Shown piece after piece: positions 1 to 4,589 of a stretch of DNA of 4,589 nucleotides; position 1 is the first letter of the stretch, and every line of letters begins with the position of its first letter. The position numbers were made by a program, and so were the translations under genes. The stretch lies in IMG/VR virus record IMGVR_UViG_2724679543_000008; one strand, written 5' to 3'. The notes beneath the pieces were generated by a model. The model did no database searches, had not been told where the DNA came from, and worked only from the letters and a program-made list of their open reading frames with translations. The DNA comes from a virus. Taxonomy: Duplodnaviria; Heunggongvirae; Uroviricota; Caudoviricetes.

Positions 1-58
1 TGTTGTTCTGAGGTGAGCATATCACCTCTGTTCAGGTGGCCAAATTCAGTGTGCCACT

Positions 59-205
59 TCAGGACGGTAAGCCTGACAGGTAGCCCGGAATGAGGGTCTT
101 GATAGCGAGCGACAACGGATAGGACTGACCGTCCAGACTCACAGTGTTTTCATAAAGGTTGATGTCGGTGACTGACAGCTTCCAGTTGTTGTTGTTGAAC
201 ATCAT
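59..205 (-). CDS. hypothetical small protein, 48 aa (MMFNNNNWKLSVTDINLYENTVSLDGQSYPLSLAIKTLIPGYLSGLPS)
   Basis: Hand-translated minus-strand ORF, ATG at 205-203 (second in-frame ATG at 202-200), TGA stop at 61-59. Strong SD GAGGAG 8 nt upstream of the ATG (rc of ctcctc at 214-219). Same strand as the Rha operon. Absent from the ORF track, which appears to list only ORFs of about 60 aa or more. No recognisable domain. Confidence 0.35.
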   Translation of the reverse strand: MMFNNNNWKLSVTDINLYENTVSLDGQSYPLSLAIKTLIPGYLSGLPS

Positions 206-324: not shown

Positions 325-501
325 CTAACGGTTAAGCGGCAGTTTCATAGCGACCAGTTGGGCTATTAGCTCGTCTCGGGATTGGTGCTGGCGGGTCTCA
401 TCTTCCGGGTCTAGACCAAGCTCTCTGAGGAGGACTTCAGTCCGGTAGCCACGGTAACGGAGAGTCATGCGCCCCTCAGGTGTGCGCGGGTCAATCATCA
501 T
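325..501 (-). CDS. hypothetical small protein, 58 aa (MMIDPRTPEGRMTLRYRGYRTEVLLRELGLDPEDETRQHQSRDELIAQLVAMKLPLNR)
   Basis: Hand-translated minus-strand ORF, ATG at 501-499, TAG stop at 327-325. The ATG lies 1 nt after the TAA stop of the upstream Rha-like gene (503-505), with a GGAGG SD inside the Rha 3' end, suggesting translational coupling. Absent from the ORF track (below length cut-off). No recognisable domain. Confidence 0.4.
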   Translation of the reverse strand: MMIDPRTPEGRMTLRYRGYRTEVLLRELGLDPEDETRQHQSRDELIAQLVAMKLPLNR

Positions 502-502
502 C

Positions 503-1249
503 TTAGATTCCCTCCACCTTACCGGATTGTGCCAGCTTCAGGAGGTGCTCTTGCTTCTGCTGGTCGGTGCCAGTGAATGCAATAAGGATGCCTCGCATCT
601 TGTCAACCATCTCAGGCTTACCGAAGACCTCCAGCCCCTTAGCGTTGAACCGGAAGTTATACCCACCTGCTGAGAACTTCTGGTCTGACGGCTTAATGAT
701 ACGAAAGCAGTCGGAATACTTCGGATTTACAGACCACTCGTTACTGATTGGGTTCTTACGAAAGAGGCCACGATGCTGGAGAAGTGCGGTCATTAGCTTC
801 TGAGCGGGCAGACCATAGGTTTTGCAGTAGTCGCCCCAAGTCACGCCTCGGCGGTTAGCGGACTGAATGGCTGCTCGCTTCTTCTGGTCTTCCAGTTGAA
901 GGACTCGACGCTCTAACGTCTGAATATGGTCGTAACACTTGGCGCGGAGGTGAACGGAATAGCCAGCGACCAGAATGAAAGTATGCTTACGGTCGAGACG
1001 ATACATTGTTCGGCTCTCACCTTTCGCGTCCTTGTATACTTCCTCGCCAACGAGCCCAAATTTGGACCCGTTAAGCTCGCTGCTCAAAGTTGAGCAGTGC
1101 TCAGTTTTGGCCCCGTTAAGCTCTTCGACCATATTACGAATATCTCGTAAAACGTGTTTATGTTCTTTTCCTGTCAGCTCAGCAATTTCAACTGAGGTCA
1201 TGGACACAAGCTGGTCGAGGTTAATGATGCTGATTTCTTGTTGGGACAT
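503..1249 (-). CDS. Rha-family phage regulatory protein / antirepressor-like protein, 248 aa
   Basis: ORF-track ORF with ATG start. Canonical SD AAGGAG (rc of ctcctt at 1259-1264) 9 nt upstream. N-terminal segment SMTSVEIAELTGKEHKHVLRDIRNM resembles the conserved core of the Rha domain (recalled motif of the form ssrEIAELtGKrHdnVlRDI). C-terminal half is compatible with an antirepressor-type (KilAC/ANT-like) domain, but that is a weaker, memory-based call. Confidence 0.8.
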   Translation of the reverse strand: MSQQEISIINLDQLVSMTSVEIAELTGKEHKHVLRDIRNMVEELNGAKTEHCSTLSSELNGSKFGLVGEEVYKDAKGESRTMYRLDRKHTFILVAGYSVHLRAKCYDHIQTLERRVLQLEDQKKRAAIQSANRRGVTWGDYCKTYGLPAQKLMTALLQHRGLFRKNPISNEWSVNPKYSDCFRIIKPSDQKFSAGGYNFRFNAKGLEVFGKPEMVDKMRGILIAFTGTDQQKQEHLLKLAQSGKVEGI

Positions 1250-1563: not shown

Positions 1564-1586
1564 GGTCCCTATAGTGATAGTTTAGT
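1564..1586 (-). promoter_or_regulatory. T7-family phage RNAP promoter-like site P1 (-17..+6), predicted +1 G at 1569, transcribing leftward
   Basis: Minus-strand sequence ACTAAACTAT CACTATA G GGACC. Positions -8..+3 (TCACTATAGGG) are identical to the T7 class III consensus TAATACGACTCACTATAGGGAGA; the -17..-9 region diverges. Lies ~320 nt upstream of the Rha-like gene on the same strand. Confidence 0.6.
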
Positions 1587-2124
1587 CAAACAGGAATGAA
1601 CTTCGGAGAACTTGACGCGAAAGTGTTCAGTACTTCCAGTAAGACCCGAAGCATGGAGACCACATCATAGCGACCATAATTTTACTTCGGGTTGGCGGGA
1701 GTGGAGGCTGGACTTAAAGTTCTTCTTATTGGAATTGTGATAACACAATCCATAACAAGATAAACTCATGGTCTCCTCCAGCCTGCTGGTCAAGACTCAA
1801 AGCTCCAACCTCAGACACCACTGATCTAACCTCTTTGAGTTTCCGCCTGTCCACAAATGGATGGCAGACCTCAGTAATGGTGTCTTGGTTCTTCAGTTAT
1901 CCGCGCAGCGATTATCACAGAGCCAACTTAAAGTCGGATGTGGTCTACTGCTCCCCGCCTGTCAAAAGGGAAGATAGCTTACGTTAAAAGGAATGGTCTC
2001 AGGCCAAGGTGATTTAACACTAGGCGTCTGCGGATGGTTTCCAATCGGTCCGCTACCGGAAGCCTGAGACTTAATGAATGTGTGTATGGGTCGTGACTGC
2101 TATTAAGGTGGGGACTTAGGGTCT

Positions 2125-2147
2125 CTCCCCTATAGTGATAGTTAAGG
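2125..2147 (-). promoter_or_regulatory. T7-family phage RNAP promoter-like site P2 (-17..+6), predicted +1 G at 2130
   Basis: Minus-strand sequence CCTTAACTAT CACTATA G GGGAG. Shares a 16-nt identical block with P1 (plus-strand ccctatagtgatagtt). Core -8..+3 identical to T7 consensus. Confidence 0.6.
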
Positions 2148-2152
2148 GTCCA

Positions 2153-2175
2153 TTCCTCTATAGTGAGGTGTATTA
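2153..2175 (-). promoter_or_regulatory. T7-family phage RNAP promoter-like site P3 (-17..+6), predicted +1 G at 2158
   Basis: Minus-strand sequence TAATACACCT CACTATA G AGGAA. Differs from the T7 consensus TAATACGACT CACTATA G GGAGA at -11 (A for G) and -10 (C for A), plus +2 (A for G) and +5/+6 in the initially transcribed region; 19/23 overall. Directly tandem with P2 (start sites 28 bp apart). Confidence 0.65.
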
Positions 2176-2367: not shown

Positions 2368-2787
2368 TTACCGCCAGGACACTTTTGCAATATCGTCTTG
2401 GTTATCCAAATGATCCGCCGAGAAATTAAAGCTCGAAGTATACGAATCGCCGTGAGCAATAGCGTCTCTTACCTCAAGACACTCTTTGATAATTTGGTAA
2501 GGTTTTGTCCCCATATAATTGTTTATACCGCACAATTTTAACGTATTCTTGTGCATTGTCTTTCTGCACTCTTTCTGCGTCTTATCGTAGCCGGGGTCAA
2601 CCTGTTTTCTATAGAAGATGAACATTGCCTCAATAGCAAAAGCAGTAAATATTATACCTGTGCGGCAATGATGCTCACGTTGCCAATCTTCCGAAGCCAT
2701 TCCAGCCAGCCCCAAACAAGTTTCAGCAGTATTCATACATTCATATGAAGGCTTATTTTCTTTGCTAACTAAAAATTCTTTGACCAT
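2368..2787 (-). CDS. hypothetical protein, 139 aa (AT-rich accessory/cargo gene; possible HEPN-like Rx4H motif)
   Basis: ORF-track ORF with ATG start at 2787 and SD-like GAGGA 4 nt upstream. Starts 31 nt downstream of the integrase stop on the same strand. Markedly lower GC than flanking genes (hand count: 23/60 GC in 2521-2580 versus 36/60 in 3421-3480). Contains EVRDAIAHGDSY near the C-terminus, which fits the R-x4-H signature used by HEPN-type RNases, but a single motif is weak evidence. Confidence 0.6.
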   Translation of the reverse strand: MVKEFLVSKENKPSYECMNTAETCLGLAGMASEDWQREHHCRTGIIFTAFAIEAMFIFYRKQVDPGYDKTQKECRKTMHKNTLKLCGINNYMGTKPYQIIKECLEVRDAIAHGDSYTSSFNFSADHLDNQDDIAKVSWR

Positions 2788-2818: not shown

Positions 2819-4429
2819 TTACTTTCCGTCTATTTTTTTTACTGACAATGACTCCGCTAATTTTTCTTTCAGCGTTTCCACCTCGACCTCTTTCGCGTAA
2901 CGGTCGTAAGTTATAGACCCTGAGCTATGACCCATAATCGCCTGAGCATACGCTAACTCGACCCCATGTTGTTTTAACTGGGTCGCAACTGTATGTCTAA
3001 ACGAGTGAAAAGCTAAGCCGCTACGGTCAGCGAGGACTTTGGGCAGCAACGTTCGGTTAAACCACTTGCTAACCTGCTCACCGTAGCCGTTCTTCATTAG
3101 CTTGAGGCCATTGAACACCATAGCATTATCACCCTCAGTCTTTCTACGGTCTTCCACGAGTGACATAAAGTCAGCCAATACAAAACCATAAGCACCATCT
3201 ACCAACGGGACACAGCGGTCACTGTGGGCGTTCTTGATACTCTTACCCGGCAGGCTGCTATCGTCTTCGTTGATATGGATAAAAACGGTCCCAGCCTCAG
3301 TGGTCCTGACATCTTTAACCTGAAGTTGGGCCACCTCGTTAAGTCTCGCACCTGTAATCGCAGCCAGAGCGGTGACGTAATAATGGTATGGCTTACCTGA
3401 GGTCTTCTGCGAGTACGCTTTAGCTGCGACCAGTAGTTGCCCTACCTGCTCAGGACTGAACGCATCACGAGCGTCGGAGGCTTTACGCTGAGGGACTTTC
3501 AGCTCAAGACCTTCGGTCAGGTTCTTAGCTATCAAGTCGTTGCGTACCGCCCACTTAAACACAGCAGCCATCTTGATAAGATATTTATTGTTAATGGTAA
3601 CGACGTCCAGACAGTCAGTCTTAGACTCCCGGTTCAGCAAGTCAGACAGCGGCATAGACTTAAAGCGTTGCTTGCGGTTCTTCGGTAGCTGCTGGAGGAC
3701 TTCACGAACTCTGAGCATATCTGCACGGGTCGCCTTGCCGACATCCTGAATATCCAGATAGTCGAATATCTCGATTAGCGTAGAGTGTGACGCTCGGTTT
3801 TCGCTTAGGGTCGCTGGCTTCCAGTTCTGGGCGTTCTCCTGCTCGTACTGCTCAATGAGAGACGCGAGGGTCAGTGCTTTAGGTTCAGGGACTTCAGGTT
3901 CCGCCAATACAGATAGGGAGACGGACGGTCTTAGACTGCCAGTCTCAGGCTCAAGGTAAGACAATAGGCCAGAGCTATCGCCATTGAGTCTATCCTGACA
4001 GGCCTTAAGCACACCGATAACGTCATTAATATAGCGATGCTGGTCTACAGTCAGACGCTCGGTCGCTACAGCTTCCCGAAGGTTGGACTTAATGTCATCG
4101 TACTGGTCAACGTAAAGCTGGTAGGACTCCGGGTCGTTCAGGTCATCACGGCTGACACTAAGTTCCCACTCGACAATGGTCTTCAGGTGCTCCCGTAGCT
4201 CCTCATAAGAGGCGTTAGGGTTGTCTGCATGGATTGCTTTAAGTGCTGACTTGATGTGCCGTGAGTGAGCCATAGCGGTACGTCTATCCTTGGTCCGTAA
4301 AGATACTGACGCTAGTTTATAACGGTTGTGAGAAGGAAGCGAAGCGGTCAGGCGACTAGTGGTCTTCATCCTAAGACGGATGTAAAAGACACCATTACGC
4401 TGATAAAGGTAGGTTCTTGACTTGAGCAT
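2819..4429 (-). CDS. int: tyrosine site-specific recombinase (phage-type integrase), 536 aa
   Basis: ORF-track ORF with ATG start and AAGG SD 9 nt upstream. C-terminal catalytic domain carries the recalled tyrosine-recombinase signatures: TGARLNE (box I Arg), HSFRHT (H-x-x-R box II), GHSSGSITYDRY (catalytic Tyr). N-terminus (YLYQRNGVFYIRLR) resembles integrase arm-binding N-termini. Sits immediately downstream of a tRNA 3' end on the same strand, the classic island/prophage arrangement. Confidence 0.9.
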   Translation of the reverse strand: MLKSRTYLYQRNGVFYIRLRMKTTSRLTASLPSHNRYKLASVSLRTKDRRTAMAHSRHIKSALKAIHADNPNASYEELREHLKTIVEWELSVSRDDLNDPESYQLYVDQYDDIKSNLREAVATERLTVDQHRYINDVIGVLKACQDRLNGDSSGLLSYLEPETGSLRPSVSLSVLAEPEVPEPKALTLASLIEQYEQENAQNWKPATLSENRASHSTLIEIFDYLDIQDVGKATRADMLRVREVLQQLPKNRKQRFKSMPLSDLLNRESKTDCLDVVTINNKYLIKMAAVFKWAVRNDLIAKNLTEGLELKVPQRKASDARDAFSPEQVGQLLVAAKAYSQKTSGKPYHYYVTALAAITGARLNEVAQLQVKDVRTTEAGTVFIHINEDDSSLPGKSIKNAHSDRCVPLVDGAYGFVLADFMSLVEDRRKTEGDNAMVFNGLKLMKNGYGEQVSKWFNRTLLPKVLADRSGLAFHSFRHTVATQLKQHGVELAYAQAIMGHSSGSITYDRYAKEVEVETLKEKLAESLSVKKIDGK

Positions 4430-4563: not shown

Positions 4564-4589
4564 TGGAGCGGGCGAAGGGAATCGAACCC
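4564..4589 (-). tRNA. glyU: tRNA gene, 3' portion only (T-arm, acceptor 3' strand, discriminator, CCA); consistent with tRNA-Gly (CCC, glyU-type); 5' part lies beyond the window edge
   Basis: Minus strand reads GGGTTCGATTCCCTTCGCCCGCTCCA: T-loop TTCGATT, T-stem 3' strand CCCTT, 7-nt acceptor strand CGCCCGC, discriminator T, encoded CCA ending at 4564. This matches my recollection of the 3' end of enterobacterial tRNA-Gly(CCC). The anticodon is outside the window, so the isotype is recalled, not demonstrated. Confidence 0.65.

Follow-up and report, generated by a model that had tools for sequence, protein, structure and literature searches.

The described phage satellites closest to the element reported here are P4, the phage-inducible chromosomal islands (PICIs), the capsid-forming PICIs (cf-PICIs) and the PICI-like elements (PLEs). 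These are islands of conserved small size (10-18 kb) that carry an integrase, sit at tRNA genes and hold defence cargo. The cf-PICIs have their own HK97-fold capsid gene, and the PLEs have a virulent helper, ICP1. An overview from December 2025 covers P4, PICIs, cf-PICIs, PLEs and a jumbo-phage satellite, and T7-like podophage helpers are not among its types (PMC12772148). Here we analyse a DNA stretch of 4,589 nucleotides (the window; IMG/VR record IMGVR_UViG_2724679543_000008), which holds part of a chromosomal island of about 6.4 kb with three promoters of the T7 family. The island resembles the described satellites in its integrase, its tRNA target, its conserved small size and its defence cargo; it shares an HK97-fold capsid gene with the cf-PICIs and, presumably, a virulent helper with the PLEs. 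It differs from them in its shorter length and in the absence of a portal, head-tail connector, small terminase, primase and Sid/Cpm homologues. Its induction also appears, from the sequence, to run through promoters for the RNA polymerase (RNAP) of a helper and not through derepression. We propose that the island is probably a satellite of virulent T7-like phages, with its promoters acting as receivers for the RNAPs of the infecting phages.

Two further bodies of work bear on this comparison. The integrative mobile elements encapsidated in virions (VEIMEs), mini-satellites that are packaged as concatemers, resemble the island in having a 5-7 kb unit and a tyrosine integrase (PMC9618062). They differ in being marine and in having no capsid genes, and packaging of the island as a concatemer is an arithmetic possibility only. 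The promoters of T7-like phages, for their part, fall into classes set by positions -12..-8. CGACT (T7), ACCCT (T3), ACTAT (K1F specificity loop, 756N) and ACCCA (N4 loop, 748D/758A) are mutually orthogonal in a T7 scaffold, with the cognate promoter preferred 8- to 75-fold (PMC3458549, PMC11880802).

Results

Three promoter sites in two classes

An earlier note on this DNA had placed three T7-like promoter sites at 1564-2175 and divided them into two classes with a common core at -8..+1. The coordinates are accurate, and the core, TCACTATAG, occurs exactly three times in the window, always on the minus strand, with the +1 G at positions 1569 (P1), 2130 (P2) and 2158 (P3). The chance expectation is 0.04 copies, and none of 200 dinucleotide shuffles gave three or more; the core was also scanned with one mismatch allowed. 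P1 (CTAAACTATCACTATAGGGACC; 1564-1586, minus strand, -17..+6) lies about 320 nt upstream of a Rha-like gene. P2 (CTTAACTATCACTATAGGGGAG; 2125-2147, minus strand) and P3 (TAATACACCTCACTATAGAGGAA; 2153-2175, minus strand) form a tandem pair, in which P3 is the upstream member and the start of P2 falls 28 nt downstream of that of P3. As the note had described, P1 and P2 are identical over a 16-mer, AACTATCACTATAGGG, with ACTAT at -12..-8 preceded by AA at -14/-13, and P3 has CACCT at -12..-8. P3 reads TAATAC CACCT CACTATAG AGGAA, is identical to T7 in its TAATAC at -17..-12 and differs from P1 and P2 at -17..-9. The strand was absent from the note, and it matters because all three sites fire toward position 1, away from the integrase gene. 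No sigma-70-like promoter was predicted on the minus strand between 2180 and 1250.

P1 and P2 belong to the K1F class

We scored the sites with position weight matrices (PWMs) built from 17 annotated T7 promoters, 14 annotated T3 promoters, 10 promoters of K1F and 12 of Cronobacter phage GW1. On the K1F matrix P1 scores 33.9 bits, which is also the median for the promoters of K1F itself (range 30.7-36.2); it scores -6.6 on the T7 matrix and at most 19.8 on the others. P2 scores 28.4 bits on the K1F matrix, 0.4 on T7 and at most 12.2 elsewhere. Both sites have the exact core, ACTAT at -12..-8 and the A-rich -17..-13 region of K1F promoters (consensus ACTAAACTAT), and ACTAT has been given as the K1F cognate (PMC11880802). 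The P1/P2 16-mer is found exactly in 68 stretches of IMG/VR contigs, mostly of 39-41 kb and with several copies each, and the consensus of these copies is (G/C)ACT(A/T)AACTATCACTATAGG(G/A)A. The contigs are K1F-like phages of the genus Kayfunavirus.

By sequence, P1 and P2 thus belong to a known class, that of K1F, and are predicted targets of a K1F-type RNAP (756N). This explains why the note found no match for them among the T7, T3, SP6 and K11 consensus sequences, which is true. The split into two classes also holds by PWM score: comparison with the promoter sets of T7-like phages, as the note had proposed, assigns P1 and P2 to K1F/Kayfunavirus and P3, which the note had called T7-like upstream, to a weak T7 type. 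P1 and P2 share their core, ACTAT and score with K1F-class promoters such as the 'PK1F' of Temme et al. 2012 (PMC3458549), and differ in lying within a bacterial chromosomal island, with no RNAP gene alongside and paired with another class.

A fixed tandem slot holds different promoter classes in sister islands

Promoters were tallied in 17 island copies from Escherichia, Shigella, Salmonella Typhi, Citrobacter, Enterobacter, Leclercia, Buttiauxella and Serratia. These copies hold 28 distinct promoters with the CACTATAG core, comprising 18 of the K1F class, nine whose best score is GW1/T3-class and a single T7-class promoter, the P3 of this window. One of the nine reads ACCCA at -12..-8, the published N4 class. 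Two island promoters read AACCT and AATAT at these positions, types that a 2025 survey gives as common to the T7 and T3 groups and to the T7 and K1F groups (PMC11880802). Most of the promoters occur as tandem pairs of two classes, with a second site about 560 nt downstream. The order within the tandem slot is fixed, a variable class being followed by the K1F class across a conserved spacer, CACTATAG(G)GGAATGGACCCTTA, and in the Salmonella Typhi island a GW1-type and K1F-type pair is present at both sites.

Promoters of the GW1 type, (A/T)TAAACCCTCACTATAGG, are those used by Cronobacter phages GW1 and Dev2 and by Enterobacter phage EP1, which are also Kayfunavirus and share about 92% DNA identity with the K1F-class members. 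The RNAPs of GW1 and K1F are 88.9% identical and differ at known specificity residues (L134 13334-16000 compared with L135 2566-5247). Relative to the specificity loop segment of T7 RNAP (TRLNLMFLGQFRLQ), those of T3 (KRLDMIFLGQFRLQ) and GW1 (TRLDLMFLGTFRLQ) carry N748D and that of K1F (TRLNLMFLGSFNLQ) carries R756N. Promoters with C-C at -11/-10 accompany 748D, and those with A at -9, a position occupied by C in the other classes, accompany 756N, in agreement with the published code of three residues and five bases. Kayfunavirus itself contains two RNAP/promoter classes, K1F with 756N and ACTAT, and GW1 with 748D and a T3-like ACCCT. Most simply read, the promoter sequences equip every island with keys to more than one helper polymerase.

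Of the two explanations offered in the note, deliberately graded promoter strengths are unsupported, because the island is natural and its sister copies hold other orthogonal classes in the same slot. K1F- and T7-type promoters have been combined in synthetic circuits, as an engineered construct or vector with designed, graded T7-type promoters would have them. However, dozens of complete E. coli genomes have the sequence in a natural chromosome next to tRNA-Gly and ETT2, and it occurs in other genera and in metagenomes as well, which refutes a construct and leaves that origin scarcely credible. The other explanation, a cognate RNAP with its own specificity, fits P1 and P2 in so far as this polymerase is of the K1F type, but none is encoded in the island.

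The islands encode no RNA polymerase

Indeed, no RNAP gene is present in the window or in any island copy, and the polymerase must therefore come from an infecting phage. Promoters of helper type without an RNAP gene constitute strong circumstantial evidence, at the level of sequence, for activation by a helper. The islands run in the order integrase, defence-gene slot, tandem promoters, structured RNA, P1, Rha-like gene, small open reading frame (ORF), scaffold-like gene, HK97-fold capsid gene, junction mimic and right attachment site (attR). They have an integrase and att sites and lack most virion, replication and lysis genes, as satellites do. A tandem pair of two classes would act as an OR gate, letting any one of several T7-like phages switch the island on.

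P3 as a weak T7-class promoter

P3 scores 27.2 bits on the T7 matrix, -3.8 on K1F and at most 11 on the others, which places it inside the range of natural T7 promoters (26.0-39.2 bits), a weak criterion. Like the promoters of T7 (Teseptimavirus) it has TAATAC and the core CTCACTATAG, with identity at all of these positions, and the AGAGG start of phi1.1A. It differs at -11 and -10, where T7 promoters have G and A, read by residue N748, and P3 has A and C. A at -11 is seen in the natural T7 promoters phiOL and phi3.8, and C at -10 in none of the 17. The nearest phage sequences are the phi1.1A/phiOL promoters of the T7 group, and the phiOL of T7-group phage Ebrios has one mismatch to P3 over 20 nt. 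We also looked for a phage that uses P3 as its own consensus. The exact 16-mer of P3 was found in IMG/VR in an island copy only, the 14-mer gave single scattered matches, and no IMG/VR phage has P3 as a recurring or consensus promoter by these searches.

It is possible, though doubtful, that P3 is a decayed GW1/T3-type promoter of the sister slot, in which case only the K1F class would be functional in this window. The slot is orthologous to that of the sister islands, with its spacer GGAATGGACCCTTA conserved, and one T>C change plus the loss of one C converts AATATACCCT to AATACACCT, so that a single substitution and a 1-nt deletion would yield P3 from a GW1-type site. The lack of any IMG/VR phage with this consensus is in keeping with decay, as is the sequence G-A-G-G at +1..+4, in place of the GGGA of class III promoters. 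Against this, P3 equals T7 at all six positions from -17 to -12, scores within the natural T7 range and lies one mismatch from a phiOL of the T7 group. An identical P3 has also been retained in five independent copies (the window, L045, L119, L128 and L148), and the bridging types AACCT and AATAT, natural in T7-group phages and shared with the T3 and K1F groups, occur in islands too. We favour P3 as a weak T7-class promoter, putatively read by a T7-type RNAP.

A structured RNA between P2 and P1

The gap of about 560 nt between P2 and P1 contains no credible ORF. Downstream of P3 and P2 it holds a conserved structured noncoding RNA or leader of about 450 nt (1715..2130, minus strand), with paired domains at approximately 2070-1715. 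Between genera the P2-P1 stretch retains 72-97% identity, also in islands with swapped flanking genes. RNAalifold, applied to nine sequences from five genera, predicted 114 pairs. In this alignment 94.7% of cells are paired, compared with 37-43% when the partners are slid, and 25 pairs change on both sides, compared with 3-8; none of 500 shuffles reached the observed values. One helix (alignment columns 216-221/296-301) has been entirely replaced by different complementary sequence in four islands, the Serratia RNA contributes independent compensatory changes, and many G-U pairs are compatible only with the strand read from P3/P2.

Searches with a covariance model built on the first two domains found the RNA in every island copy searched bar a divergent Shigella variant (L122), and gave no match in the K1F, GW1, T7 and T3 genomes. 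An Rfam cmscan at E<=1 returned the tRNA-like end of the window only, which leaves the structured RNA without a family. The tip of the last hairpin (helix 18) is a palindrome, GGATTGTGTTATCACAATTCC (1733..1753), that is invariant or nearly so in all nine aligned islands and could bind a protein in addition to forming an RNA hairpin. Conserved unpaired motifs, GAUUGGAAACC and the twice-repeated GACAGGCGG, were also observed. No T7-type terminator was seen before P1 in the window, so the RNA would be either a processed stand-alone product or a long structured leader. Candidate roles are replication priming, a cofactor in assembly or packaging, and interference with the helper.

A capsid-fold gene and a scaffold-like gene

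In intact islands a 163-aa gene is followed by a 329-aa gene, about 600 bp of non-coding DNA and then attR, which repeats the 3' end of the tRNA. The 329-aa protein has no sequence match in Pfam, PHROG or the PDB. A profile search recovered 66 relatives, some of which carry C-terminal Ig-like domains, typical of virion proteins. AlphaFold gave an unusable model with a shallow alignment (predicted local distance difference test score, pLDDT, 42) and a score of 83.6 once distant homologues were added. In a Foldseek search with this model, all top matches were HK97-fold capsid proteins and encapsulins (E~1e-8, probability 1.0). The predicted structure thus identifies the 329-aa protein as having the HK97 capsid fold.

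The sequence of the 163-aa protein has a highly charged helical centre, as in scaffolding proteins, and suggests a scaffold-like role. Its matches to T7_gp14 are weak and sub-threshold only. The RefSeq/PGAP name 'peptidase M16 family', given to this protein (L001 11652-12143), has no profile support. From the set expected of a cf-PICI (major capsid, portal, protease/scaffold, connectors and small terminase), the island has the HK97-fold and scaffold-like proteins only, and scans of Pfam, PHROGs and NCBIfam gave no P4-like Sid, Psu, Delta or alpha primase-helicase. We also considered contigs of about 6.4-7 kb with the capsid gene as candidate free elements; the one examined is chromosomal.

A mimic of the phage concatemer junction and a constant unit length

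In T7, the tandem promoters phi1.1A/phi1.1B, the phiOR promoter and the concatemer junction have roles in replication and packaging. The island offers a similar arrangement, with its promoter pair 28 nt apart and a junction in the same orientation downstream. Every intact island has a sequence some 250 bp inside attR that can be aligned with the right-end concatemer junction of K1F, SH4 and GW1 and, less closely, with that of T7. A block before the terminal repeat, GACGATGAGTTTTG(G)AC..AAAA.T.TGAGACC.CA, is followed by TCT at the cut site, and further blocks are CCCCCATAG and then (G)TCCAGACCAAAGGCC (CCAGACCAAAGG). The BLAST match has E=5e-5 in a small search space; the sequence recurs in every island, and its orientation relative to the promoters is phage-like. 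The mimic lies outside this window (L001 10283-10432, L117 5451-5600, L129 663-812 and L140 9762-9911) and is followed by a degenerate promoter-like sequence, GACTATCACTACAAC, reminiscent of phiOL. The island differs from the phage in that about 4 kb of genes separate the pair from the junction, compared with about 0.65 kb, and in the start of the terminal repeat, which is TCTAATA in the island and TCTCACAG in the phage. Origin and packaging (pac) functions of the island are putative.

The P3-P2 pair and its spacer are most similar to the phiOR region of Kayfunavirus (SH4), just upstream of the phage junction. A promoter pair like phiOR and an island end like a Kayfunavirus genome end are what one would expect of the remnant of a decayed T7-like prophage with fossil promoters. 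Such a remnant is very improbable, since no other T7-like gene is present (RNAP, DNA polymerase, portal and terminase are all absent) and the capsid-fold protein is unrelated in sequence to gp10. The compact architecture, the intact ORFs and the compensatory RNA changes retained in many genera also speak against it.

The distance from the left attachment site (attL) to attR is 6336-6476 bp in ten copies at the tRNA-Gly gene glyU (L001, L116, L129, L139-L141, L144-L146 and L150), the length of L116 being taken after subtraction of an IS66-family insertion of about 2.7 kb. In a second island type, at ynfE (L117), the unit is 6712 bp, and the att-like direct repeats of a distant mini-island (L154) lie 6715 bp apart. 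Unit length is constant despite swaps of the cargo and regulator modules. Six units come to 38-40 kb, close to one Kayfunavirus genome, which is an arithmetic observation only. In the ynfE type we observed five tandem 14-bp units, AGGTCCAGACCCTC, between the capsid gene and the pac-like site (L117 5778-5847). A motif related to this unit, GTCCAGACTCACAG, lies inside the 163-aa gene, also at about 133-146 of the window.

Boundaries and genes of the window

All genes of the window lie on the minus strand. Its right end falls inside tRNA-Gly (glyU), the 3' end of which (4564..4589, minus strand) gives a weak tRNA-like acceptor/T-arm match and is annotated here in E. coli relatives. The attL core, CCCTTCGCCCGCTCCA (4564-4579), is a 16-mer repeated at attR of complete islands. 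A tyrosine integrase of 536 aa follows (2819..4429, minus strand; PF00589 E=1.6e-18, PHROG integrase E=4e-45). Beyond the promoters, the leader of about 320 nt from P1 leads to the Rha-family/Ant-like regulator of 248 aa (503..1249, minus strand; PF09669 E=1.5e-18, PHROG anti-repressor Ant E=3e-62). This is the first gene downstream of P1, and in some sister islands an unrelated 161-aa gene takes its place, a module swap. A small ORF of 58 aa (325..501, minus strand) is present in all island copies at 53-100% identity and has no family match in Pfam or PHROG scans. Of the 163-aa coiled-coil, scaffold-like gene, only the initial 48 codons are present (62..205, minus strand), with 94% identity to residues 1-48 of the intact protein. 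The window then ends in an IS911-like end (1..62), which is 100% identical to the IS911 ends annotated in Shigella phages Sf6 and SfII. It truncates the 163-aa gene after codon 48 and, at least locally, cuts off the capsid gene, the junction mimic and attR. In Shigella flexneri SFBU1023 (L128, ~2785-4600) we observed a stretch of about 1.8 kb with an IS911-matching end (TCAGTGTGCCACTT) in the upstream half of P1.

Distribution of the islands

To search for islands, the promoter motif was run against a single genome of each species, and the proteins and the context of the matches were then looked up. The island is spread across Enterobacterales: besides E. coli, it was found in Shigella, Citrobacter, Leclercia, Buttiauxella, Enterobacter, Salmonella Typhi, Serratia and Yersinia, and in 13 metagenome contigs. 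Complete copies adjoin glyU in E. coli genomes, beside the ETT2 region, and the second type has ynfE as its insertion site, with repeats of 16 bp. Of 5426 complete E. coli genomes, 114 contain most of the 930-nt non-coding stretch, in no case with an annotation; in the comparison with phages, the promoters alone match. An intact integrase, att sites, a spread over at least eight genera and two integration sites point to mobility.

Distant homologues of the capsid gene (24-33% identity) occur in two similar mini-islands, each with an integrase, small genes, a protein of about 140-155 aa and the capsid-fold gene. These have T7-family-like 20-mers of their own, partly in tandem, namely AAAAACCC(T/C)CACTCTAAGG in four copies and TAAACCCCGACTATAGAGAG in three. 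The repeat sites, with motifs AAAAACCCYCACTCTAAGG and TAAACCCCGACTATAGAGAG, are at L154 2423-3662 and at L155 5751-5806 and 9463-9482. A search for the helper phages of these two mini-islands by their motifs gave single scattered matches only.

The cargo slot

Between the integrase and P3 the window encodes orf139 (139 aa; 2368..2787, minus strand), for which no family reaches threshold. A sub-threshold HEPN_RiboL-PSP match (E=0.019) covers an RDAIAH (Rx4H) motif, and orf139 may be a HEPN-like protein and another defence gene. In most sister islands the same slot gives a full-length PADLOC match to PD-T7-4 (E=1e-102), which is RAZR. We considered orf139 as a RAZR and found no similarity.

RAZR is a zinc-finger/HEPN RNase that aborts T7 and T3 infection on assembling round the portal ring (PMC13017515), and the original screen remarks that PD-T7-4 systems 'often overlap an integrase gene' (PMC9519451). 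RAZR in the sister islands likewise overlaps the integrase, and this remark is the only notice of RAZR-bearing copies in the literature searched. Term matches in the two papers on the locus (Vassallo 2022, PMC9519451; Nature 2026, PMC13017515) brought up no island promoters, RNA, capsid gene or pac-like site, and the window differs from the loci described there in having orf139.

Discussion

Our results allow a model for how the island would operate as a satellite. It builds on the promoter classes, the missing RNAP gene, the boundaries and att sites, the RNA covariation, the HK97 fold, the junction similarity and the differences between RNAP loops, all established here. In the uninfected cell the late module would be silent, for which the lack of a predicted sigma-70-like site is weak evidence. 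On infection, the RNAP of the phage would read whichever promoter fits, P1 and P2 being keyed to K1F-type RNAPs, P3 weakly to T7-type and the sister slots to T3/GW1- or N4-type enzymes, and the RNA and the operon would be transcribed. Transcription from P3 and P2 would pass through the structured RNA, and that from P1 would enter the operon of Rha-like, small ORF, scaffold-like and capsid genes and continue to the junction mimic. The integrase would excise the island, and the replisome of the helper would copy it, perhaps primed at the tandem promoters by analogy with T7 origins. The helper terminase would then cut at the junction mimic, and the island capsid protein would build or remodel heads in which the island is packaged and transferred.

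A number of observations weigh against this satellite model, in addition to the departures of P3 from the T7 class at -11 and -10, its possible origin by decay and the lack of a phage with its consensus. T7-like phages degrade host DNA, which the island would have to escape. Genes for a portal, a terminase and a replication protein are missing from the island, as is any recognisable excisionase. The capsid-fold and scaffold-like proteins are unrelated in sequence to T7 gp10, gp9 and gp14, and hhalign comparisons of the capsid-fold protein with T7-group gp9, gp10, gp13, gp14, gp18, gp6.7 and gp7.3 gave no match. The pattern of a joined attachment site (attP) is absent from IMG/VR and JGI metagenomes, a weak negative that covers assemblies only, and all 13 metagenome contigs are the integrated form. 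Abortion triggered by the portal, as by RAZR, sits awkwardly with the need for late proteins of the helper. The copy in this window, truncated by IS911, is probably defective or inert.

Several of these points would suit a defence element that does not transfer, in which the promoters would be an infection sensor for an interfering RNA, a decoy capsid or scaffold and HEPN-type cargo, and which would never be packaged. The relatives carry RAZR/PD-T7-4, an abortive-infection RNase against T7 and T3, no excised form was found in the IMG/VR and JGI metagenomes, and packaging and replication genes are absent. However, without packaging it is difficult to account for the conserved junction mimic by attR and for a unit length kept tightly at 6.34-6.48 kb through swaps of modules, and the intact integrase, att sites and range of at least eight genera and two integration sites also argue against such an element, which we regard as unlikely.

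The promoter classes themselves are known. Distinctive of the island, as a putative satellite, are its proposed induction through arrays of orthogonal phage-RNAP promoters and a new structured RNA; full-text searches of the literature turned up neither a satellite of T7-like phages nor an account of the promoters, RNA, capsid gene or pac-like site of this island. There is about an even chance that these islands are the first satellite family of virulent T7-like phages (Autographiviridae), induced through orthogonal promoter arrays with one key per helper lineage, and equipped with a new RNA, their own capsid gene, a junction mimic and RAZR-type cargo, and that this strategy is widespread, as the distant relatives with other promoter types suggest.

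If so, promoters readable only by the RNAP of an invading phage would provide a simple switch that is tightly off, specific to infection and readable from sequence, a natural counterpart of the synthetic orthogonal promoter logic built on T7, T3, K1F and N4. T7-like podophages, on which phage therapy and biotechnology rely heavily, would join the phages that bear satellites, and this would have a bearing on therapy outcomes and on gene transfer in E. coli, Shigella, Salmonella Typhi and Enterobacter. RAZR/PD-T7-4 would gain the context of a mobile element, and the structured RNA would be a new one expressed only during infection. The promoter repertoire of an island could also record, in its sequence, which phage lineages prey on the strain that carries it.

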